From a virus (lineage: Duplodnaviria > Caudoviricetes): a DNA stretch of 64,000 bases. The position numbers and the translations under genes were made by a program. The notes under the pieces were generated by a model. The model was given only the letters and a program-made list of their open reading frames with translations, did no database searches and had not been told where the DNA came from. This document shows, in pieces, positions 34,518-43,361 of this stretch (within the stretch, counting starts at the first letter, position 1; every line of letters begins with the position of its first letter). The DNA is taken from positions 1 through 64,000 of the IMG/VR virus record IMGVR_UViG_2643221888_000001. One strand, written 5' to 3'.

Positions 34518-35948
34518 ATGGTTCACCCAGTACGCAAACAATCCGACGAGGCCACAGCGCTCAACGAGCACTGCGCGCTGATCGACGCGCTGCTGGGCGG
34601 TACGAAGGCCATGCGCGCCGCCGGCGAGCAGTACCTGCCGCGCTGGCCGGCAGAGGATTCGGATTCGCACAAAACGCGCCTGGCCGTGGCAACGTTGTTC
34701 CCGGCCTACCAGCGCACGATCGAGGTGCTGGGCGCCAAGCCGTTCAGCAAGCCGGTCACGCTGGGCAAGGACGTGCCCGCGAAGCTGCAGCCGTGGCTCG
34801 AAGACGTCGATCGCCAGGGACGCAACCTGCATGCTTTCCTCGCTGAGGTGGGCCAGGAGGCGCTGGGCTATGGTTTCTCGGGCATCCTGGTGGACTACCC
34901 GCCGACGCAGGACAAGGACGGCAAGCAACTCTACGTCACCAAGGCGGACGAGCAGGCCGCTGCGGTACGGCCGTACTTCGTGCAGATTCACCCCAAGAAC
35001 ATCCTGGGCTGGCTGACCGACAGGAATGGCCTCAAGCAGCTGCGCTTGCTGGAAACGGCCACCGAGGAGGACGGCGAATTCGCAACGAAGGAAGTCGAGC
35101 AGGTGCGCGTGCTGACGCGCGGCGCCTGGGCGACGTGGCGCAAGGTCGAGGGCGGCAACAAGCAGGACGACTGGCAGATTCATGAACGTGGTGTGACCAC
35201 CATCAAGGGCATCCCGTTCGTTCCCGTCTACGGCAACCGCCTGGGCTTCATGCGTGCTCGGCCGGCGCTGCTCGAGCTGGCCTATGCCAACGTCGAGCAC
35301 TGGCAGAGCAAGAGCGATCAGCAGAACATCCTGCACGTCGCTCGCGTGCCGATCCTGTTCGGGAAGGGATTGGGCGAGAGCCAGATCTCGGTTGGTGCTG
35401 GCACGGCGGTAAAGGCTGAACATCCAGACGCTGACCTTAAATTCGTGGAGCACAGCGGCAAGGCAATCGATGCCGGCCGCCTGTCGATCCTCGACCTTGA
35501 AGACCGCATGCGCCAGGCCGGCGCCGAGCTGCTGGTGATCAAGCCCGGCAACGTCACCGAGAGCCAGACGCTGGCCGACAACGAGCAGGGCGCTTGCGCG
35601 CTGCAGAAGGTGGCCGAGAACATCGAGGACTCGGGCGACCAGGCGCTGCAGTTCATGGCTGAGTGGGTGGGTGAGGCGCAAGGCGGCCACATCACCGTGT
35701 TCAAGGACTTCGGCGCCGCAACCCTGGCCGAGGCCAGTGCCGAGCTGCTGCTGAAGGTCAATCAGGCCGGCCGACTGTCCAACGAATCGCTGTATGGCGA
35801 GTTGCAGCGGCGCGGCATCGTCCGGCCCGACGCCACATGGGCGGAAGAGCAAGAGCGCATCGATGCGCAGGGGCCGGCACTGGCAAACCTGCCCGATCCT
35901 GACGCGCCGCCGGCACCGCAACCGAAGGCCAAGCCTAAAGCAACATGA
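34518..35948 (+). CDS. Portal protein (DUF4055-like)
   Basis: Follows terL; GGTKAMRAAGEQYLPRWPAE motif. Confidence 0.88.
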   Translation: MVHPVRKQSDEATALNEHCALIDALLGGTKAMRAAGEQYLPRWPAEDSDSHKTRLAVATLFPAYQRTIEVLGAKPFSKPVTLGKDVPAKLQPWLEDVDRQGRNLHAFLAEVGQEALGYGFSGILVDYPPTQDKDGKQLYVTKADEQAAAVRPYFVQIHPKNILGWLTDRNGLKQLRLLETATEEDGEFATKEVEQVRVLTRGAWATWRKVEGGNKQDDWQIHERGVTTIKGIPFVPVYGNRLGFMRARPALLELAYANVEHWQSKSDQQNILHVARVPILFGKGLGESQISVGAGTAVKAEHPDADLKFVEHSGKAIDAGRLSILDLEDRMRQAGAELLVIKPGNVTESQTLADNEQGACALQKVAENIEDSGDQALQFMAEWVGEAQGGHITVFKDFGAATLAEASAELLLKVNQAGRLSNESLYGELQRRGIVRPDATWAEEQERIDAQGPALANLPDPDAPPAPQPKAKPKAT

Positions 35949-37546
35949 TCGATCCGCTGCTCGACCATACCGTCCGCCACCAGGTGAACATGGCCCAATA
36001 CGGCAATTACGTACTGGCGAAAATGATCCGGGTGCTGAACCTTACCGATGCTGACCTGATCGGCGCCCTGAACGCGGCGCTGGAGGAGGTCGACGCGGAC
36101 TCCTTCAAGGTCCAGCGCCTGGACAAGCTGCTGGCCAGCGTGCGGGAAGTGAATGCCCAGGCTTACGCGAAGCTGTACGGCGCCATGGCCGACGAGCTCC
36201 AGGCCTACGTGGAGTACGAAGGCCAGTTCCAGTACGACCTGTACAAGCAGGTGGTTCCGGCGACGTTCAGCATTTCCAGTGTGGTACCGGAGCAGGTCTA
36301 CGCCGCCGCGATGGCGCAGCCGATGCAGGGCCGCCTGCTCAAGGACTGGGCGGCCAACCTGTCGGCCAGCCGGCTGCAGCGCGTCAAAGACACCATCGCC
36401 GTGGGCTATACCCAAGGCAAGACGACCAGCGACATCGTGCGTGAGATTCGCGGCACGAAAGCCCTGAACTACGCCGACGGCTTGCTCGACACGAGCCGCC
36501 GGGAGGTGGACGCGGTGGTGCGCACTGCGCTGAGCCACACGGCCCAGGTCACGCGCACGCGCTTCACGAAAGAAAACGATGACATCCTCGGCGACGAGAT
36601 GTGGGTCAGCACCCTGGACGGCCGCACCAGCCCGGAGTGCCGCGCCCGCGACCACCTGCTGTACACCAGGGGCGACCATCAGCCGGTCGGTCACGACCTA
36701 CCATGGCGCGCCGGCCCTGGCCGCATCCACTGGTGCTGCCGCTCGTCCTCGATCGCGCTGCTGAAAGGCCAGAAGTCGCTGACGGGCGCGCGTGCGTCCG
36801 CTGGCGGTTCGGTCGATGCGAACCTGGCCTACTCGGACTGGTTCAAGCAGCAGACCGCTGACGTGCAGGACCAGGTCATCGGCCCGGCGCGGGGCGACCT
36901 CTACCGCGCCGGCAAGTTTGACGTCAAAGACTTCACGAACGACAAGGGCCGGATGGCCTCGCTAAAGGAATTGCGCGCGCGCGACGGCGCCGCCTTCCGG
37001 CAGCCGCCCGGCGACTTCACTGTGTACGATTCGACCTATCCGCGCACGCTGCCCGACACCTCGACGCCGGCACGCCAGCAAGCTGTAGCAATCGAGGAGC
37101 GCATCCGAGACGACACGCTGGAGACAGGCGCTTTCGTGGCGCCTGATGGCAAGGTGCTGGCGCAGCGCCAGGGGCAGCCAGATCGGGTAACCTTCAAAGG
37201 GTCGGATTTCGATGGCGTGGCCGGCGCGGTGTTCACGCACAACCACCCAGGCGGCACGTCGTTCTCGCTGGCCGACGTGGCCCATGCGGCAGATCTCAAC
37301 CTGGCTGAGTTGCGAGCCGTGACACCGCTGCAGCGGTTCAGCATGATGCCGGGCAAGGCCTGGCCTGATCCTGGCACCATCCAGAAGGCTTATAATGCTG
37401 AGTTGAAGCACGCCCAGCTGGACGTGCACAATCGCGTCACGGGCGGCGAACTGCAGGCGAAGTTCAAGGCCGCCGAAACTGCCCACATCCTGTGGGAGCG
37501 CGTGGCGAAACGACTCGGCATGCAGTACACCAGGGAGAATTCGTAG
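35945..37546 (+). CDS. MuF/gp7 head morphogenesis protein with C-terminal JAB-like domain
   Basis: VRTA..WVSTLDGRTS..CRARD..HWCCRS (MuF); C-terminal E..THNHPGGTSFSLAD. Confidence 0.88.
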   Translation: MIDPLLDHTVRHQVNMAQYGNYVLAKMIRVLNLTDADLIGALNAALEEVDADSFKVQRLDKLLASVREVNAQAYAKLYGAMADELQAYVEYEGQFQYDLYKQVVPATFSISSVVPEQVYAAAMAQPMQGRLLKDWAANLSASRLQRVKDTIAVGYTQGKTTSDIVREIRGTKALNYADGLLDTSRREVDAVVRTALSHTAQVTRTRFTKENDDILGDEMWVSTLDGRTSPECRARDHLLYTRGDHQPVGHDLPWRAGPGRIHWCCRSSSIALLKGQKSLTGARASAGGSVDANLAYSDWFKQQTADVQDQVIGPARGDLYRAGKFDVKDFTNDKGRMASLKELRARDGAAFRQPPGDFTVYDSTYPRTLPDTSTPARQQAVAIEERIRDDTLETGAFVAPDGKVLAQRQGQPDRVTFKGSDFDGVAGAVFTHNHPGGTSFSLADVAHAADLNLAELRAVTPLQRFSMMPGKAWPDPGTIQKAYNAELKHAQLDVHNRVTGGELQAKFKAAETAHILWERVAKRLGMQYTRENS

Positions 37547-37717: not shown

Positions 37718-37941
37718 TGCTGCACCTGGTCCCTGACACTCCGGCACCTGAGAAGCCGAAGCTGCGTAGCGCCCGCGCCAGCAAGCCGGCCGACATGCTG
37801 CAATGCCCGCGCTGCCAAGGCCGGGAGTTCATCGAGACGGTGATTGGCGCCATGGTGCAGGCGCGCAAGCTCAAGGGCGGCACCCGGCAGATCGTCTGCT
37901 TCGGCTGCATGCTGAATGGTGAGCGCGTGGTCGTCGCATAA
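37717..37941 (+). CDS. Small zinc-ribbon protein
   Basis: CPRC..CFGC; TGATG coupling. Confidence 0.75.
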   Translation: MLHLVPDTPAPEKPKLRSARASKPADMLQCPRCQGREFIETVIGAMVQARKLKGGTRQIVCFGCMLNGERVVVA

Positions 37942-37973: not shown

Positions 37974-38004
37974 AGGCCGCCCGGGCAACCTGGCGGCTTT
38001 TTTT
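37974..38004 (+). terminator. Intrinsic terminator
   Basis: GCCGCC-CGGGCAACCT-GGCGGC followed by T7. Confidence 0.75.
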
Positions 38005-38017
38005 ATGCCTGGGCCAT

Positions 38018-38422
38018 ATGCACATAGCCATCAACATCATCTGCTGGCTGTGGGGCTGCTGGGTCGCGTTCAACCTGCTCATGGTCGCTCTGGCCGCCAC
38101 AGTGCTGCCAGTCCACCAAGCGCACTTTGACGGGTTCCGCGCTCGGTTGCCGTCCTGGTTGCCTGAACTGCTAACCAGCGACGAGATTGCCGCGGTGGTT
38201 TCGCACGAGCATGGTCACCGATACCATCTGCACGTCTGGACCAACCTCGCGCTGCGCTGCCTGCTCCTGACCCCGGGCGCGCGCTGCCGGCGCCGACAGG
38301 AGATCGAAGCCGACGACTACGCCGTCGCTCACGGGCACGGCCGCCACATGGCCAGCGCGCTCCGAAAGCTGTCGAGTCACCCTGACGACATATCCCGGGC
38401 CGAGCGCCTGGAACGAATGTAA
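38018..38422 (+). CDS. Small membrane M48/M56-like zinc metallopeptidase
   Basis: N-terminal TM; EIAAVVSHEHGH (HEXXH); RRQEIEADDYA; SSHP..R. Confidence 0.82.
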   Translation: MHIAINIICWLWGCWVAFNLLMVALAATVLPVHQAHFDGFRARLPSWLPELLTSDEIAAVVSHEHGHRYHLHVWTNLALRCLLLTPGARCRRRQEIEADDYAVAHGHGRHMASALRKLSSHPDDISRAERLERM

Positions 38423-38441
38423 GACCAACCTGAATTTCACC

Positions 38442-38465
38442 AAGCCGCCTTCGAGCGGTTTTTTT
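38442..38465 (+). terminator. Intrinsic terminator
   Basis: GCCGC-CTTCGA-GCGGT followed by a T-run. Confidence 0.7.
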
Positions 38466-38538
38466 ATGCCGCAAGCGGACGCGACGCGGTGCACGGCCGG
38501 AAGGCCATCGATAGGGCGGATGCCCGGAAAGTCATACC

Positions 38539-39351
38539 ATGCCATTCAAATACAACGCCGACGGCACGATCGCTCTGGACGACAAGAAGCTGCCGATCTT
38601 CATCCATTCGAACGGCACCGAGGCGGCATTTGACGCCGAGGCCACGCTCGGAACCATCTCCCGCTTGAACGGTGAAGCGAAGGCGCATCGCGAAGCGAAG
38701 GAAGCGGCCGAGACCAAGCTGAAGTCGTTCGACGGCATCGAAGACGGCGTGGCGGCACTGGCGGCCCTGAACACCGTGAAGAGCCTGAGCTCCGGTGAGC
38801 TGAAGACTGCCGCCCAGGTGAAAGAAATCCAGGATGCCGCCGCCAAGACCGCGCAGGAGCAAGTAGCCGCCCAGGCCAAAGCCAGCGCCCAGCAGTTGCA
38901 GGAACTGACCGCGACGCTGGAAAAGCGCACCAATGAATTGAACAACCACATGATCGGCGGTGGCTTTACTGGCTCCAAGCTGTTCAACAAAGAAGCGAAG
39001 CATCCAAGCCAGCTGGCAATCCCGCCTGAGATGGCGCGCGCCTACTTCGGCGGCAACTTCAAGGTCGAAGACGGCAAGATGGTTCCTTACGACGCCGCTG
39101 GTAATAAGATTTTTTCGCCGACACGCCCTGGTGAGATTGCCGACTTCGATGAAGGCCTGGCTCAGCTCGTCGCCGCCTGCCCGTTCAAGGAGCAGATTCT
39201 GGCAAGCTCGGGCGCATCCGGTGGTGGCGCCCAAGGCAACGGCGGGAAGACGCCAGGCGGCAAGAAGCAGATTACGCGCGCCGAGTACGACGCCATGGAT
39301 CCCATGGCCCGCGCCGGCGCAATGAAAGAAGGTGCCGCGATCGTTGATTGA
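38539..39351 (+). CDS. Capsid scaffolding protein
   Basis: Coiled coil; ISRLNGEAKAHRE; Gly-rich linker and terminal helix; precedes the capsid gene. Confidence 0.85.
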   Translation: MPFKYNADGTIALDDKKLPIFIHSNGTEAAFDAEATLGTISRLNGEAKAHREAKEAAETKLKSFDGIEDGVAALAALNTVKSLSSGELKTAAQVKEIQDAAAKTAQEQVAAQAKASAQQLQELTATLEKRTNELNNHMIGGGFTGSKLFNKEAKHPSQLAIPPEMARAYFGGNFKVEDGKMVPYDAAGNKIFSPTRPGEIADFDEGLAQLVAACPFKEQILASSGASGGGAQGNGGKTPGGKKQITRAEYDAMDPMARAGAMKEGAAIVD

Positions 39352-39509
39352 TCCCGCTCGCTCCACACACGAGGCCCGCTACATGCGGGCTTCTTCGTTT
39401 TCGCAGTACCGCAGTGCTTTGCCGGCGCCTGGATGGGCAAGTCGGTGCTTTTGGGCTGGATGGCCTCTCTGTTCAAAACCTCAAACCACCAATTAAAGGC
39501 AATTCCAAC

Positions 39510-40844
39510 ATGAAGAAAATGATGATTTCCATCGTCGCCCTGGCTGCGATGGCACTGACCTCCACGGCCCAGGCCGTCAGCACCTGCGCCGACAAGATGG
39601 CATTCGGTACCAAGGTCGTCTGCGAAATGGTCCAGGCCCACATCTGGAACTACGCTACCAAAACCGGCCTGGCACTGGGCTCGAACAACCTGACCGGCCT
39701 GATCACCACGCTGTACAACGCGATGGATGTGGTATCACGCGAGCAGGTGGGTATGATCCCGGCCGTGTCCGCAGACATGACATTCGCCCGCGCTGCCGTC
39801 GGCCAAGTTGTGACTTCGCCAGTCGCGCCAGCGGCAACCGCGACCGACATCACGCCGGCCGTGACGCCACCGAATGACGGCGACCAGAACATCGGCAACA
39901 AGTCGGTAACCCTGACCAAGGCACGCCGTGTGCCGATCCGCTGGAACGGCGAAGAGAAGCTGGCTCTGGACAACAGCGGTAACAGCTACAACATCATCCT
40001 GCGAGACCAGTTCGCCCAGGCGATGCGCACGCTGTGCAATGAAGTCGAATCGGACCTGACTGCGCTGCACGTCAAGGCCTCCCGCGCCTACGGCACCCCG
40101 GGCACTGCGCCTTTCAGCATTGCCAACGATCTCGGCGACACCGCCGGCGCCCTGCGCATCCTGGAAGACAACGGCGCCCAAGGCCTCGACTTCCAGATGG
40201 TGCTGGGCTCGGCCGCGATGCAGAACATGCGGGGCAAGCAATCGGGCTTGTTCAACGTCGAGAAGGCTGGTCGCGAGGACATGCTTCGCGACGGCATCAC
40301 CGACCGTCTGCAAGGCCTGGCGCTGCGCCAGTCTGCGCAGATCAAGCGCCCAGCGAAGGGCACCGCCGCCGGCGCGACCACTAACGCAAACGGCTATGCA
40401 TTCGGTGCCACAGTCATCACGCTGGCCGCCGCCGGTACCGGTTCGTTCATAGCGGGCGACGTAATCGCTTTCGCCGGCGATCCCGAAAACAAATATGTCG
40501 TCTCGTCCGGCGACGCTAGCACGGCGGATGGCGGCACCATCACCATCGCTGCGCCAGGTCTGCTGCAAGCAATCCCGCCCGCTGCGACCGCGATCACCGT
40601 CGCCAACGTCGGCTTCCGCAATATGTTCTTCGCCCGCTCGGCAATCGTGCTGGCAACTCGCGTTCCGGCGCTGCCAGCGCAGGGCGACTCAGCCGCCGAC
40701 CGCACCATCATCACCGACCCTGTGTCGGGCCTGTCGTTCGAGGTGAGCATGTACATGCAGTACCGCCAGGTCCAGTACGAGATCGCACTGGTGTGGGGCG
40801 TCGGCGCTGCCAAGGACGAGCACATCGGCATCCTGCTGGGCTAA
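39510..40844 (+). CDS. Major capsid protein (P22 coat-like) with N-terminal leader
   Basis: NNLTGLITTLYNAMDVVSRE..QFAQAMRTLCNEVESD..YEIALVWG; AAAGG SD before MKKMM. Confidence 0.9.
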   Translation: MKKMMISIVALAAMALTSTAQAVSTCADKMAFGTKVVCEMVQAHIWNYATKTGLALGSNNLTGLITTLYNAMDVVSREQVGMIPAVSADMTFARAAVGQVVTSPVAPAATATDITPAVTPPNDGDQNIGNKSVTLTKARRVPIRWNGEEKLALDNSGNSYNIILRDQFAQAMRTLCNEVESDLTALHVKASRAYGTPGTAPFSIANDLGDTAGALRILEDNGAQGLDFQMVLGSAAMQNMRGKQSGLFNVEKAGREDMLRDGITDRLQGLALRQSAQIKRPAKGTAAGATTNANGYAFGATVITLAAAGTGSFIAGDVIAFAGDPENKYVVSSGDASTADGGTITIAAPGLLQAIPPAATAITVANVGFRNMFFARSAIVLATRVPALPAQGDSAADRTIITDPVSGLSFEVSMYMQYRQVQYEIALVWGVGAAKDEHIGILLG

Positions 40845-40898
40845 TCCATCAACACCACCCGGCGGCCAGGACGGCGCCGGGCAACCTGCGAGAACGCA

Positions 40899-41270
40899 AT
40901 GCCAACCATCAAAATCAAGTCCAGCGACCCTGCTACCCAAGGTCCTTTCGTCATTATCGAAAAGGGCGACTTCAACCCAGATTTCCACGAACTTTACGAC
41001 GACGGCTCCGACCAAGGCATGGGCGACGTAGAGCGCGCGCCGACCATGGCCGAGCTGTTGGCCGCCCGCGACCAGCTGATCGCGCGCGAGCGCCAACTCG
41101 CCGACCTCGAGCAGAGCCTCACCGAACAGGCGCGAGCCAACGAGGTCGAGGCCCAGCGCCTGGCCGACGAGCGCTCCGCTGCCGAAAAGGCGAAGACTGC
41201 TTCCGACGCTGCCGACAAGGCTACCAAGAAGGCCGCCGACAAAGCTGCAGCCGACGCGAACAAGTCGTAA
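40899..41270 (+). CDS. Small head-associated protein
   Basis: FVIIEKGDFNPDFHELY followed by coiled coil; post-capsid position. Confidence 0.75.
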   Translation: MPTIKIKSSDPATQGPFVIIEKGDFNPDFHELYDDGSDQGMGDVERAPTMAELLAARDQLIARERQLADLEQSLTEQARANEVEAQRLADERSAAEKAKTASDAADKATKKAADKAAADANKS

Positions 41271-41293
41271 GCACTACCTCCAGCACCACAAAC

Positions 41294-41318
41294 AGCCCGC
41301 CGCGTGCGGGCTTTTTCA
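41294..41318 (+). terminator. Intrinsic terminator
   Basis: AGCCCGC-CGCGT-GCGGGCT followed by TTTT. Confidence 0.75.
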
Positions 41319-41339
41319 ATTCCGCCACCGAGATAGCTA

Positions 41340-43361
41340 ATGTCCACAACCACCAAGATTAAAGTAGGCGAGTCCGCCAAGACCATTTCGCTGCCCGAGG
41401 GGCAGGCGCTGGTTCTCACAGGCTCGACCGGCGCTGCCGGCGTGGCCTACTTGCTGGACCAGGCGCTCGGCGGCACCAATTCACTGCGGTCGTGGGTCAT
41501 CGGCGCCGGAGCGCTGGCTGCCATTGGCCCGTACGAAAACACGCAGCTGATCCATGTGACGTGCTCGGCCGGCTCGATCGCGGCGACTGTCAAAGATGCG
41601 GTGCTGACGATCTCTGTCTCGACAACGCCGACACCAACGCCGACCCCGACGCCAACCACGCCAGGCCAGCCGGCAAAACCGGTCCTGACTGCTATGGCGG
41701 GCGCCGTGAGCCTGGCCTGGACGCCGGGCGCCGCCGGCAGCACGGCTACCACCGGGAACATCTGGACCGACATCAACGGCAACGTCACGCAGCTGACCAC
41801 TAATCCGCAAACGATCACGGCGCCGGCCGGAACGCCGTACACCGGCACGGTGTCCACGGTAAATGCTCAGGGCGCTGGGCCAGCATCTGCGCAGGCCGAT
41901 CCCGTCACGCCCATCTCGATGCCGACCGTCGTGCCGTTCGACAGCACGGTGGCATTTCCCGCTGGCCAGCAGGTCACGTATGCCGGTGGCCTGTACACAT
42001 TCACCGCCGCGCATCCTGCCGGGAACTGGACCGGTGCCGACGTGACGTACAACGGCCAGAGCGGCACGCGCGCGCTCAATACAGTGGGCATGAGCAAACC
42101 ACTCGGCGTGGTCAGCTCGTTCACCTCCGGCGGCATGGACACCACCACGACGACAGCCCCCAGCGGCTCGCGCGGCGGCAAATGCCAGATGGAAGCGCCC
42201 TTCACGAAGCTGCGTGTGGTGCGCTACCAGCGCGAGGCGGCACCTACTCGTGGATTCGCGATTTCGGTTGCCTCGACCGAGACCGACAGCGCGTCGAGCA
42301 TTTCGAATGCTGTTGACCCGATCGTCGGCGGCGTCGCGTACAGTGTGCTGCGGGCAAACTCGCAGTATGGCTTTGCCCGCGTCCCTTGGGGCGGCCAGCC
42401 ACGCTCGCCGATCCAAGCGCCAGCAGGCGTCAGCTCGCCAGGCCAGGGCTACGTCACGCATATGAGCACGGCGATCTCCGACTGGGTGGACTGCGCCAGC
42501 GTGACGCCGCTCAACAACAAACTGCCGATGGTTGTCTTCCGCTACAACGGCCTGGCCAACGCCGGCGACGTCGGCTCGAACGCCAACCAGGGCACGCTGG
42601 GCGCCATGTACAACGCCTACATCAACGGCACCGCGACCGGGCGCTTTCTCGTCGCACCGAGCGTAGGCGCTGGCGATCACGTGGCCGATCCGACGTTGTC
42701 GCGCGCTGGCGCCACGATGTACGACCCGACGCAGTACAACACCGGCATCTGGCAGAACATCGCATTCTGCGCCGAGCATGGCATCCCGACGCGGGTGGTT
42801 GCCGGGTTCGGCGACTCGATCACAGAGGGCTACTCCTGGTGGCAGAACGCGGTCTACGCGCTCAGCACGCAGAAAGCGCCGGCTTACGTGGTGAATTTTG
42901 GCTGCAGCACCAACCGCGCCGCGCAGTACCTGGAATTGCTCAAGTCTCAGTTGCGTGAGGAAAACTACTTCACCGACATTTTGATTCCGTCGTTTTCGCC
43001 GAACGAAGTGCAAGCGATGACCAGCACGCTGGCCGATGGATTTATCGCCGGCCTGCAGGATGCCATTGAGCTGTGCCGAGTCTATAACAAGCGTCTGTAC
43101 ATCTGGACTAGCTACGCCGCCAAAACCACCCGCTATGCAGGCAACTCGACAGCGACCGCCGCGATTCGAAAAATCAACGACTGGGTACGCGCTGAAGCTG
43201 GCAAAACTGGCGCGCTGTTCAACCTGATCGAGATCGAAAACGGCTGGGACAACGCCAGCATGATCGTGACCGCGAACAGCGACAACACGCACCCGAACGC
43301 CACGGCCGGCATCCCCTACATGACCTCTCGCTGCCTGCCAGCCATCCAACTCGGAGCGTAA
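41340..43361 (+). CDS. Multidomain protein: PT linker, FN3-like, CBM5/12-like and SGNH hydrolase domains
   Basis: TPTPTPTPTP linker; FPAGQQVTYAGGLY..W; FGDSITEG and DNTHPN (SGNH blocks I and V). Confidence 0.8.
   Translation: MSTTTKIKVGESAKTISLPEGQALVLTGSTGAAGVAYLLDQALGGTNSLRSWVIGAGALAAIGPYENTQLIHVTCSAGSIAATVKDAVLTISVSTTPTPTPTPTPTTPGQPAKPVLTAMAGAVSLAWTPGAAGSTATTGNIWTDINGNVTQLTTNPQTITAPAGTPYTGTVSTVNAQGAGPASAQADPVTPISMPTVVPFDSTVAFPAGQQVTYAGGLYTFTAAHPAGNWTGADVTYNGQSGTRALNTVGMSKPLGVVSSFTSGGMDTTTTTAPSGSRGGKCQMEAPFTKLRVVRYQREAAPTRGFAISVASTETDSASSISNAVDPIVGGVAYSVLRANSQYGFARVPWGGQPRSPIQAPAGVSSPGQGYVTHMSTAISDWVDCASVTPLNNKLPMVVFRYNGLANAGDVGSNANQGTLGAMYNAYINGTATGRFLVAPSVGAGDHVADPTLSRAGATMYDPTQYNTGIWQNIAFCAEHGIPTRVVAGFGDSITEGYSWWQNAVYALSTQKAPAYVVNFGCSTNRAAQYLELLKSQLREENYFTDILIPSFSPNEVQAMTSTLADGFIAGLQDAIELCRVYNKRLYIWTSYAAKTTRYAGNSTATAAIRKINDWVRAEAGKTGALFNLIEIENGWDNASMIVTANSDNTHPNATAGIPYMTSRCLPAIQLGA

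Follow-up and report, generated by a model that had tools for sequence, protein, structure and literature searches.

The major coat protein of a siphovirus-like prophage, encoded within the 64,000-nucleotide stretch of DNA analysed here (the window), begins with a 57-residue leader laid out like a Sec-type signal peptide. Judged from codon composition, substitution patterns and comparison with relatives, this leader exists, is translated, evolves under purifying selection and keeps its signal-peptide architecture over many lineages. Among the loci compared, it co-occurs one-sidedly with the gene of an M48-like zinc metalloprotease, and it hints at an undescribed route of phage capsid maturation. 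A full-text literature search found neither the leader nor the M48-like protease described.

The coat open reading frame lies on the plus strand at 39510..40844, starts with ATG and comprises 444 codons; it was the only P22-type coat gene of the genome matched with the coat query. The coat body, residues 58-444 with the stop codon (39681..40844, +), aligns with positions 2-383 of the 385 in the PHROG 283 profile (major head protein; E 2.6e-95) and scores 36.7 bits with Pfam P22_CoatProtein (PF11651), whose cut-off is 24. An AF2 monomer model of the whole precursor (pLDDT 75) shows an HK97-like fold with the P22-type insertion domain, and its best Foldseek matches are the coats of P22 (gp5), Sf6 and CUS-3 (E 2e-16 to 5e-13). 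Apart from its N-terminal leader, the coat is P22-type by profile and predicted fold. The exception is the family N-terminus, Met-Ala/Ser-Asn-Thr-Leu-Thr, since the place of the start methionine of leaderless homologues is occupied by Gly57 (codon GGC), with 56 additional residues ahead of it.

The leader can be divided into three parts. A signal-peptide-like segment, residues 1-22 (39510..39575, +; GC3 0.82), consists of an MKK n-region with positive charges at K2 and K3, an uncharged stretch of hydrophobic to small-polar residues (4-20; mean Kyte-Doolittle 1.91) and small residues at -3 and -1 (A20-Q21-A22), followed by V-S. It has the n-region, h-region and AxA of a Sec signal peptide, a call made with our own heuristic rule and inspection rather than SignalP, and the crude form of this rule passes 415 of 4106 crude host ORFs. 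A pro-segment predicted by AF2 to be helical follows at residues 23-51 (39576..39662, +), and then the junction TGLALG at residues 52-57 (39663..39680, +), which has the G-x-x-x-G-type tail seen in most leaders; together, residues 23-57 (35 amino acids) separate AQA from S58-N59-N60-L-T-G-L. The initial annotation had described exactly this plan, from MKK through AQA and V-S to a family N-terminus 35 residues on, and inspection of the sequence reproduced it in full. The MANTLTGL-like N-terminus that it gave for the family was equally well founded, as leaderless homologues start MANTLTGL or MSNTLTGL and PHROG 283 aligns from residue 58. In the AF2 monomer the leader forms a single helix over residues 2-52 (pLDDT 58-81) that does not dock onto the body, so the model gives no information on mechanism.

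Codon composition changes at the assigned start: GC3 is 0.82 in 39510-39680 and 0.81 in the coat body, against 0.50 in the same frame upstream. A ribosome-binding-like AAAGG motif stands 10 nt before the coat ATG (39495..39499, +), and AAAGG or AAGG is aligned at this place in all 17 relatives aligned. Its reported use by other late genes agrees with the similar AAGG or GAAAGG motifs ahead of several of them, e.g. 34518, 47089 and 60940. The leader shows dN/dS of 0.1-0.3 in close pairs, and the window differs from locus L004 in the leader by 12.3 non-synonymous and 15.7 synonymous differences. The only in-frame starts downstream in the window leader are ATG 39597 (M30) and ATG 39627 (M40); no A/G-rich ribosome-site motif precedes either of them or the junction in the window, in agreement with the earlier remark that the canonical point has neither ATG nor SD. 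An ATG is found at the canonical place in 113 of 118 leaderless loci. No ATG, GTG or TTG lies within six codons of the junction in 14 of the 49 listed leader-bearing loci, with the window included and duplicates counted; some relatives have a GTG, TTG or ATG 2-4 codons ahead of the junction. The internal methionine codons of leaders show no conservation among homologues. Internal initiation at M30, at M40 or at a GTG or TTG near the junction was considered and rejected, as none of these starts is conserved and none has a ribosome-site motif.

N-terminal extensions are found in 38 of the 120 best database homologues of the coat, and 35 of 155 unique coat loci are leader-bearing, with 118 leaderless and 2 unclassified. 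Alignment of homologue N-termini, a check that the initial annotation had proposed, revealed recurring leaders: a net-positive n-region followed by an uncharged core of 12-26 residues is present in 64 of 66 distinct leaders, the two exceptions being a core without an n-region (probably a mis-called start) and one misfit. Total leader length at the loci is 35-69 residues and the spacer varies widely. The c-region of most type A leaders has AQA, AHA, ASA or ATA, the other leaders have comparable sites, and in most of the 66 the tail G-[LVIM]-x-[LAMF]-G or G-V-A-A stands just before the canonical second residue; the same tail also precedes capsid genes of other families. In the coat tree (FastTree), leaders occupy at least five places, which takes a minimum of seven changes, five of them forced by starred branches, and on this topology the coat was retained through several gains or losses of the leader. 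In the cultured Rhizobium phages P106B and RHph_X2_24, ANTLT is immediately preceded by leaders of about 22-28 residues, which end AYA one residue before the canonical N-terminus and have no pro-segment. Their presence in cultured phages indicates that a leader is compatible with virion production. The window leader also resembles the host's own porin-type signal peptides.

The candidate protease is encoded at 38018..38422 (+) and is a 134-residue M48-like zinc metalloprotease with one N-terminal hydrophobic helix, as assigned by Pfam and AF2. Its longest ORF begins at 37916 and homologues begin at the methionine at 38018. Pfam Peptidase_M48 (PF01435) matches at 28.6 bits against a cut-off of 20.3, covering about 31 residues around HExxH, and neither the HExxH residues (H63, E64, H67) nor E95 vary across 121 sequences. 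The AF2 model (pLDDT 96) has helix 2-28 as its sole N-terminal helix and lacks the multi-pass architecture of HtpX, Ste24 and BlaR1. Foldseek places it closest to ZMPSTE24, Ste24, an uncharacterised M48 peptidase, BepA and BlaR1; prob reaches 1.0, but E values are only 0.035-0.7 and query TM-scores 0.45-0.63. The protein matched no NCBIfam family, and its M48-like family comprises 154 members. No relative of either M48-like type described here was found in 50,697 cultured-phage records, a search of 401 genomes of the host's order (E up to 1e-12) returned the window's own genome only, and a metagenome scan with the protease profile gave mostly distant cellular M48 genes.

In the window, the head genes are ordered portal, MuF-like, Zn-ribbon, M48-like, scaffold and coat, so that the protease is on the same strand as the coat and upstream of it; the same placement is found in L092, L171, L211-L213 and L216. 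No known prohead protease family of the serine type (HK97 gp4, T4 gp21, ClpP or S49) was found among the window head genes. The sole exception is a weak PHROG 595 match within the MuF-like protein. The slot that holds the protease is variable in the window's lineage and bounded by terminator-like hairpins, and in relatives it holds other cargo, namely an S1-like protease (2 loci) or a lipoprotein (1 locus); because of this, the protease could be an accessory gene that has nothing to do with the coat. The S1-like serine protease was rejected as a general substitute, as it occurs at 2 unique loci only and its Pfam Trypsin_2 match falls below the cut-off.

The interpretation in the initial annotation is supported in part: it had proposed the nearby M48 protease as a possible maturation enzyme, and the comparison of loci lends this link support. 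A match to the M48-like HMM within 7 kb of the coat was found at 15 of the 35 unique loci with a leader and at none of the 118 leaderless or the 2 unclassified ones, counts that take in related and not independent loci. Seen from the protease, 15 of the 22 full-length matches examined adjoin a leader-bearing PHROG 283 coat and 3 adjoin leader-bearing capsid genes (Pfam P22_CoatProtein, GP7 and Gp13-like); of the other 4, 1 (locus L207) lies by a leaderless coat, 1 has another context and 2 are truncated, and 11 of the 22 are records already included in the locus counts above. The enzyme cannot be a general requirement: none of the 10 near-complete M48-less leader-bearing virus records searched, 8 of which reach a completeness of 93% or more, has the M48-like gene, and the 2 complete genomes of the cultured Rhizobium phages with short leaders lack it too. 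Positive controls matched in 3 of 3 records.

A second, more distant M48-like group lacks the helix, and its gene is placed after the portal gene. In phages that carry it, up to three head proteins share the N-terminal word LLGLLFPG followed by V or I. A word repeated in this way, as read from the sequences, is the pattern that would be expected of the substrates of a head maturation protease.

Taking these observations together, we tentatively favour, at somewhat less than even chances, the reading that the leader is a cleavable membrane-directing propeptide, cut at the G-x-x-x-G junction by the M48-like protease or a host enzyme. The coat would be translated from the ATG at 39510 as a precursor with a three-part, 57-residue propeptide, of which residues 1-22 would direct the new subunit to the inner membrane or, failing that, keep it from assembling, and residues 23-51 would act as a helical spacer. 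Cutting at TGLALG (52-57) would then leave the N-terminus of leaderless relatives (Ala/Ser-Asn-x-Leu-Thr). The likeliest cutter here would be the single-helix, membrane-anchored M48-like protease encoded two genes upstream (38018-38422); in phages without it, a host membrane protease might take this role, either signal peptidase I at AxA or an HtpX-type enzyme. By the positive-inside rule, the coat domain behind a leader that begins MKK would come to lie in the periplasm, a compartment in which capsids cannot package DNA. The propeptide model needs incomplete translocation or peripheral binding. The AF2 monomer, with the leader as a single long helix that does not dock, also counts against it. 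Membrane targeting or tethering, export, cleavage, its site, the acting enzyme and control of assembly timing are all steps that we infer. That the leader hides the coat from CapRel or Lit, as was also suggested for this gene, is speculation. A wider version is possible though more doubtful: in several capsid families of tailed phages, a Sec/SRP-type signal-anchor would park the coat precursor at the inner membrane until a dedicated membrane-anchored M48-type protease of the phage, or a host substitute, freed subunits able to assemble, and a soluble sister system would trim the shared word from three head proteins, coat and scaffold among them.

The leader may instead be handled by host Sec and signal peptidase I only, with a cut after AQA (residue 22), a pro-segment that is kept or trimmed non-specifically and an M48-like gene that is unrelated cargo. 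We consider this unlikely, although it accounts for the textbook c-region, most type A leaders having small residues at both -3 and -1, for the likeness to host porin-type signal peptides, for the Rhizobium phage leaders that end AYA with neither a pro-segment nor an M48-like gene, and for the many leader-bearing phages in which the protease is missing. Signal peptidase works at the periplasmic face, however, and a cut there implies export of a coat that assembles around a leaderless cytoplasmic scaffold. Three further observations would be left unexplained: the conserved G-x-x-x-G junction at the canonical N-terminus, the one-sided co-occurrence with the M48-like gene, and the leader and junction on other capsid families beside that gene.

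The leader might also never be removed, its hydrophobic helices bundling under the capsomers as a built-in scaffold or delta-like domain inside the head. The N-arm of P22-type coats does point into the procapsid, the AF2 helix over residues 2-52 is continuous, the window head module yielded no classical prohead protease, and the coat has persisted through several gains or losses of the leader. The module also has a separate scaffold gene, which is counted on this side. We nevertheless regard retention as improbable: the basic-hydrophobic-AxA plan of 64 of 66 leaders is more elaborate and specific than bundling of helices would require, the spacer length varies widely, and the small-residue junction falls exactly at the canonical N-terminus. 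The association with the M48-like protease likewise speaks for the cleavable propeptide and not for a retained helix.

The region upstream of the coat bears on whether the gene has a second function. The scaffolding protein gene (38539..39351, +; Pfam DUF6651, PHROG 784 and PHROG 206, head scaffolding) has no leader and is followed on its 3' side by a terminator-like hairpin with a T-run (39371..39403, +), whose stem shows paired changes in relatives (GGCCCGC/GCGGGC vs GGCCTGC/GCAGGC). Locus comparison further revealed a conserved non-coding element with two CTGGATGG words at 39424..39470 (+), about 80 nt ahead of the coat ATG. Of the 35 leader-bearing loci, 27 have the CTGGATGG element on the coat strand, between -77 and -82, as does 1 short locus; it occurs a single time in the host genome, and a hairpin predicted in it shows compensatory changes at two pairs. 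No Rfam family was matched between scaffold and coat (E up to 1), and no sigma-70-like promoter was found in 38300-41400. With a terminator and a strongly conserved 5' element ahead of it, the coat gene could be regulated on its own, which would suit a full-length exported or membrane form with a role in the lysogen or during infection (exclusion, decoy or evading defences that sense capsids), the capsid subunit arising from a minor internal or non-canonical start such as the codons found 2-4 positions before the junction in some relatives. We hold this to be very improbable, given that a start near the junction is missing in the window and 13 other listed leader-bearing loci, that M30, M40 and the junction all lack a preceding ribosome-site motif, and that this is the only coat gene of the genome found with this query. 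An annotation artefact, with the true start downstream at one of the in-frame ATGs (39597 or 39627) and a non-coding frame upstream, is hardly credible in view of the rise in GC3 at 39510, the leader dN/dS below 1, the unconserved internal Met codons, the architecture kept in 64 of 66 leaders and the conserved ribosome-site motif ahead of 39510.

The proposed propeptide shares features with several known systems. Capsid propeptides are known from HK97, with the gp5 delta domain and the gp4 protease, and from T4, with the gp23 propeptide and gp21. To our knowledge, all prohead proteases described so far are serine enzymes that become packaged within the procapsid, and the corresponding propeptides are soluble and resemble scaffolds. 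As in HK97 and T4, the extension is N-terminal on the major capsid protein, where it is absent from their mature forms, and the protease gene lies between portal and coat. Unlike in those phages, the candidate enzyme here is an M48-like zinc protease that has a membrane-type helix, the leader is Sec-like, a separate scaffold gene is present and the protease is missing from many leader-bearing phages. In Staphylococcus phage 80alpha, N-terminal leaders of capsid and scaffold are reportedly cut by the host protease Prp; the short head-protein leader that copies a host leader is similar, and a host enzyme would fit the phages here that lack the protease. The 80alpha leader, however, is said to copy that of ribosomal protein L27 and to be cut by a cytoplasmic cysteine protease, whereas export signal peptides appear to be copied here.

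A virion coat with a Sec- or YidC-type leader is also known from the procoats of the filamentous phages M13 and Pf3, whose signal peptide is cut by leader peptidase; those are tiny helical coats assembled at the membrane, in contrast to the 387-residue HK97-fold coat of an icosahedral shell with a cytoplasmic scaffold. SAR (signal-anchor-release) endolysins, exported enzymes that act in the periplasm, offer a parallel in their N-terminal signal-anchor: the leader, too, is weakly hydrophobic and rich in Ala, Ser and Thr, and could keep a late protein inactive at the membrane until its release, but the coat must end in the cytoplasm. The window protease has HExxH and a downstream Glu like HtpX, Ste24 and BepA (M48) and BlaR1 (M56), and differs from them in its 134 residues, its single helix and its position in a phage head module. 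The P22 gp5 coat belongs to the same Pfam family, shares the predicted fold and also works with a separate scaffold protein; it is not known to undergo proteolytic processing or to have a leader, unlike the window coat with its 57 residues.

In the prevailing view, tailed phages mature their capsids with a few families of serine proteases, which act inside a cytoplasmic procapsid, and P22-type coats are the textbook example of coats that go unprocessed. If the propeptide reading is true, an M48-type metalloprotease would be a new enzyme class for head maturation, and the assembly of an icosahedral tailed-phage head would include a membrane step with a metalloprotease-based checkpoint. Gene callers and signal-peptide predictors would mark such coats as secreted. 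In the gene-cluster enrichment, the clusters specific to leader-bearing loci were, the protease aside, of a single lineage or made up of alternative-frame ORFs. Clusters 17 and 40 are alternative-frame ORFs over the start of the scaffold gene.

The late genes of this siphovirus-like prophage all lie on the + strand, beginning with the large terminase (start 33216), the portal (34518), the MuF-like head morphogenesis protein (35945-37546), a small Zn-ribbon protein (37717), the M48-like protein (38018) and the scaffold (38539). The coat (39510) is followed by a 123-aa protein (40899) and by a GDSL/SGNH esterase-domain protein of 673 aa (41340-43361), which separates the coat gene from the connector and tail genes downstream, and the tape measure (49826), holin (60940) and endolysin (61511) complete the series. 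Two Rhizobium phages that likewise have leader-bearing coats, P106B and RHph_X2_24, carry an SGNH esterase gene a few genes 3′ of the coat. A search with the window coat as query found a single member of the family in the genome, and its AF2 model resembles the coat structures of P22, Sf6 and CUS-3.

From the ATG at 39510, with AAAGG 10 nt upstream, the coat frame opens with MKK; residues 4-19 form an uncharged core, A-Q-A occupies 20-22, and 35 further residues lead to S58-N59-N60-L-T-G-L. Position 2 of the PHROG 283 profile aligns at residue 58, leaderless homologues start MANTLTGL or MSNTLTGL, and GGC (Gly57) occupies the codon place of their Met. The initial annotation had described this N-terminus as a signal peptide and pro-segment ahead of the family start, and its description proved accurate wherever it could be checked. 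Signal-peptide calls throughout follow our own rule.

The leader is translated as part of the gene by several measures. GC3 is 0.82 in the leader (39510-39680) and 0.81 in the coat body, against 0.50 in the same frame upstream. Leader dN/dS is 0.07-0.3 among close pairs of relatives; between the window and the related locus L004 it is 0.19 (12.3 non-synonymous and 15.7 synonymous differences), compared with 0.01 for the first 150 coat-body codons, so that the leader is less constrained than the body, yet clearly coding. An AAAGG/AAGG word is kept 5′ of the ATG in 17 of 17 aligned relatives. The GC3 step, the dN/dS of the leader and this conserved word oppose an annotation artefact with the true start downstream, which is very unlikely. 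The only in-frame starts after 39510 are at 39597 and 39627, with a ribosome-site motif before neither. Some relatives have a GTG or TTG (Val/Leu codon) 2-4 codons ahead of the junction (TGLALG, residues 52-57), but none is present in the window or in 13 further loci with leaders (duplicates included), and there is therefore no conserved alternative start.

Among the best 120 of 5323 database homologues, 38 have an N-terminal extension and 82 none. Species genomes and viral contigs supplied 196 coat loci, of which 193 were scorable and 155 unique; 35 of the latter bear a leader, 118 are leaderless (113 with an ATG at the canonical place) and 2 are unclear. Pooling loci and proteins gave 66 distinct leaders. 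In 64 of them the n-region is net-positive and the uncharged core runs for 12-26 residues; of the other two, one has no n-region, probably because its start was mis-called, and one departs from the pattern. At the loci, leaders span 35-69 residues and fall into several sequence types, and the canonical second residue is directly preceded by a tail of small residues, either G-[LVIM]-x-[LAMF]-G or G-V-A-A. Named leader-bearing records are Duganella, Janthinobacterium, Telluria and Caldimonas genomes and one Cupriavidus protein. In the cultured Rhizobium siphophages P106B and RHph_X2_24, the annotated coat starts give short leaders (~22-28 residues), basic and hydrophobic with A-Y-A, directly ahead of ANTLT; a leader is therefore compatible with infectious virions.

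A quick, unrooted FastTree phylogeny of 148 coat bodies places leaders in one all-leader clade of 26 and in at least four other positions. Leader presence requires a minimum of 7 changes, of which starred branches force 5, and without a root gains and losses are indistinguishable. The leaders of three loci, L122, L136 and L137, differ from one another by a dN of 0.13, versus 0.18-0.20 for the first 150 body codons, and their coat bodies sit in different clades, which suggests that the leader region moves by recombination.

The M48-like gene (38018-38422, +) encodes, judging by homologues, 134 residues with a single N-terminal hydrophobic helix followed by HExxH and a downstream Glu, both invariant in 121 sequences. 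Its Pfam M48 match is above cut-off and its AF2 model has very high confidence (pLDDT 96), with ZMPSTE24, Ste24, BepA and BlaR1 as top structural matches at weak E-values; neither an NCBIfam name nor a functional PHROG name applies. A search of 5.8 billion proteins returned 154 relatives at E up to 1e-5, and the cultured-phage collection held none. Within the host's order, 1 of 401 genomes has the gene, namely the window's own.

Run over all 155 unique coat loci translated in six frames, with up to 7 kb on each side, the M48-like profile matched 15 loci, all of them among the 35 with a leader and none among the 118 leaderless or the 2 unclear; these counts are not independent trials because the loci are related. 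Starting instead from the protease, we found 22 loci in viral contigs matching most of its length, 11 of them records already in that count. A leader-bearing PHROG 283 coat lies downstream in 15 of the 22, and some of these coats (L202, L211, L212, L218) share just 34-53% identity with that of the window. In three more, the protease is upstream of a capsid gene missed by tblastn with the window coat: L213 (Pfam P22_CoatProtein, profile beginning at residue 48), L216 (Pfam GP7/PHROG 212, residue 36) and L210 (Pfam Gp13-like, residue 32). All three capsids have a basic-hydrophobic N-terminal extension with a similar tail, weak in L210. The remainder comprise one leaderless coat (L207), two loci cut off before the coat and one other context. 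In L207 (L207:4405-6979) an intact M48-like gene accompanies a coat that begins M-G-T-L-T-L-T-G-L; of the relatives with a leader, L002 and L202 are closest to this locus. The PHROG 206 scaffold proteins adjoining the protease gene in L216 (5145-6191) and L210 (3057-3863) also carry N-terminal extensions, with tails like G-L-S-L-G or G-L-L-M-R-G, the profile beginning at residue 93 in L216; the window's scaffold, unlike these, has no extension.

The profile found all 3 positive controls, and matched none of 10 M48-less leader-bearing virus records (8 at least 93% complete) and nothing in the complete genomes of P106B and RHph_X2_24. These absences are evidence against a required role for the protease, as is its position in the cargo-like slot described below.

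Our best reading, held tentatively, is that the leader is a propeptide of the coat. Its signal-like head would take the precursor to the inner membrane, or hold it unable to assemble, and the junction would then be cut by the membrane-anchored M48-like protease where present and by a host membrane protease elsewhere, giving the coat the family's normal N-terminus. Topology is the main difficulty: by the positive-inside rule a basic-first leader should put the following part outside the cytoplasm, whereas DNA is packaged in the cytoplasm and the scaffold lacks a leader. Host signal peptidase acting alone at A-Q-A is a less probable rival. About as probable as that rival is an uncleaved leader whose internal helix serves as a small built-in scaffold. 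A separate exported function of the coat precursor is the least likely of the three. Escape from capsid-sensing defences such as CapRel or Lit, proposed in the initial annotation, is speculative. Among the matches listed in full-text literature searches, no paper describes a leader of signal-peptide type on the major capsid protein of a tailed phage, or a metalloprotease acting in capsid maturation.

Weaker matches of the M48-like profile in viral contigs (L219-L253) form a helix-less group of ~110 residues, encoded directly 3′ of a ~725-residue portal-like gene. Most of the loci encode, further downstream in the head module, as many as three proteins that start basic and continue with an LLGLLFPG-like word plus V or I: one of 170-200 residues, an acidic scaffold-like protein of ~245 and a PHROG 1357 capsid protein of ~474. 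An N-terminal word common to several head proteins beside a protease gene has the look of maturation-protease substrates, and the group resembles a head maturation system built on a metalloprotease, for which there is no cultured representative.

In the window's lineage the M48-like gene lies between two terminator-like hairpins (37975-38005 and 38442-38470), each followed by the same TTTTTATGCC word, which suggests a terminator-bounded cassette. Relatives' versions of the slot hold other, lower-GC cargo. Two loci without the M48-like gene (L009:4969-5775, L052:5109-5900) have a low-GC trypsin-like gene between the MuF-like and scaffold genes, with apparent His, Asp and Ser motifs (SAAHV, DLGV, GISGSP) and a Pfam Trypsin_2 match below cut-off. 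Since L061 has a lipoprotein-like ORF there as well, the slot behaves like a cargo site. The window's MuF-like protein has ~160 additional C-terminal residues, absent from relatives' MuF proteins, with an H-N-H-P-G-G ... S-x-x-D stretch reminiscent of JAB/MPN metalloenzyme motifs, the spacing being one residue short; this C-terminal third has no Pfam match.

A non-coding block (39424-39470, core 39429-39463), located 3′ of the scaffold terminator and 5′ of the coat ATG, is more conserved than the neighbouring genes; it has two CTGGATGG words 19 nt apart and no Rfam match. The host genome contains it once. Of the 35 leader-bearing loci, 27 have it at -77 to -82 relative to the coat ATG, as does a single leaderless locus, L147. 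A hairpin surrounding the first CTGGATGG word is predicted by RNAalifold, and two of its pairs carry compensatory changes (AU 9/GC 7; AU 8/GU 6/CG 2). The block may be an operator for a protein controlling coat expression.
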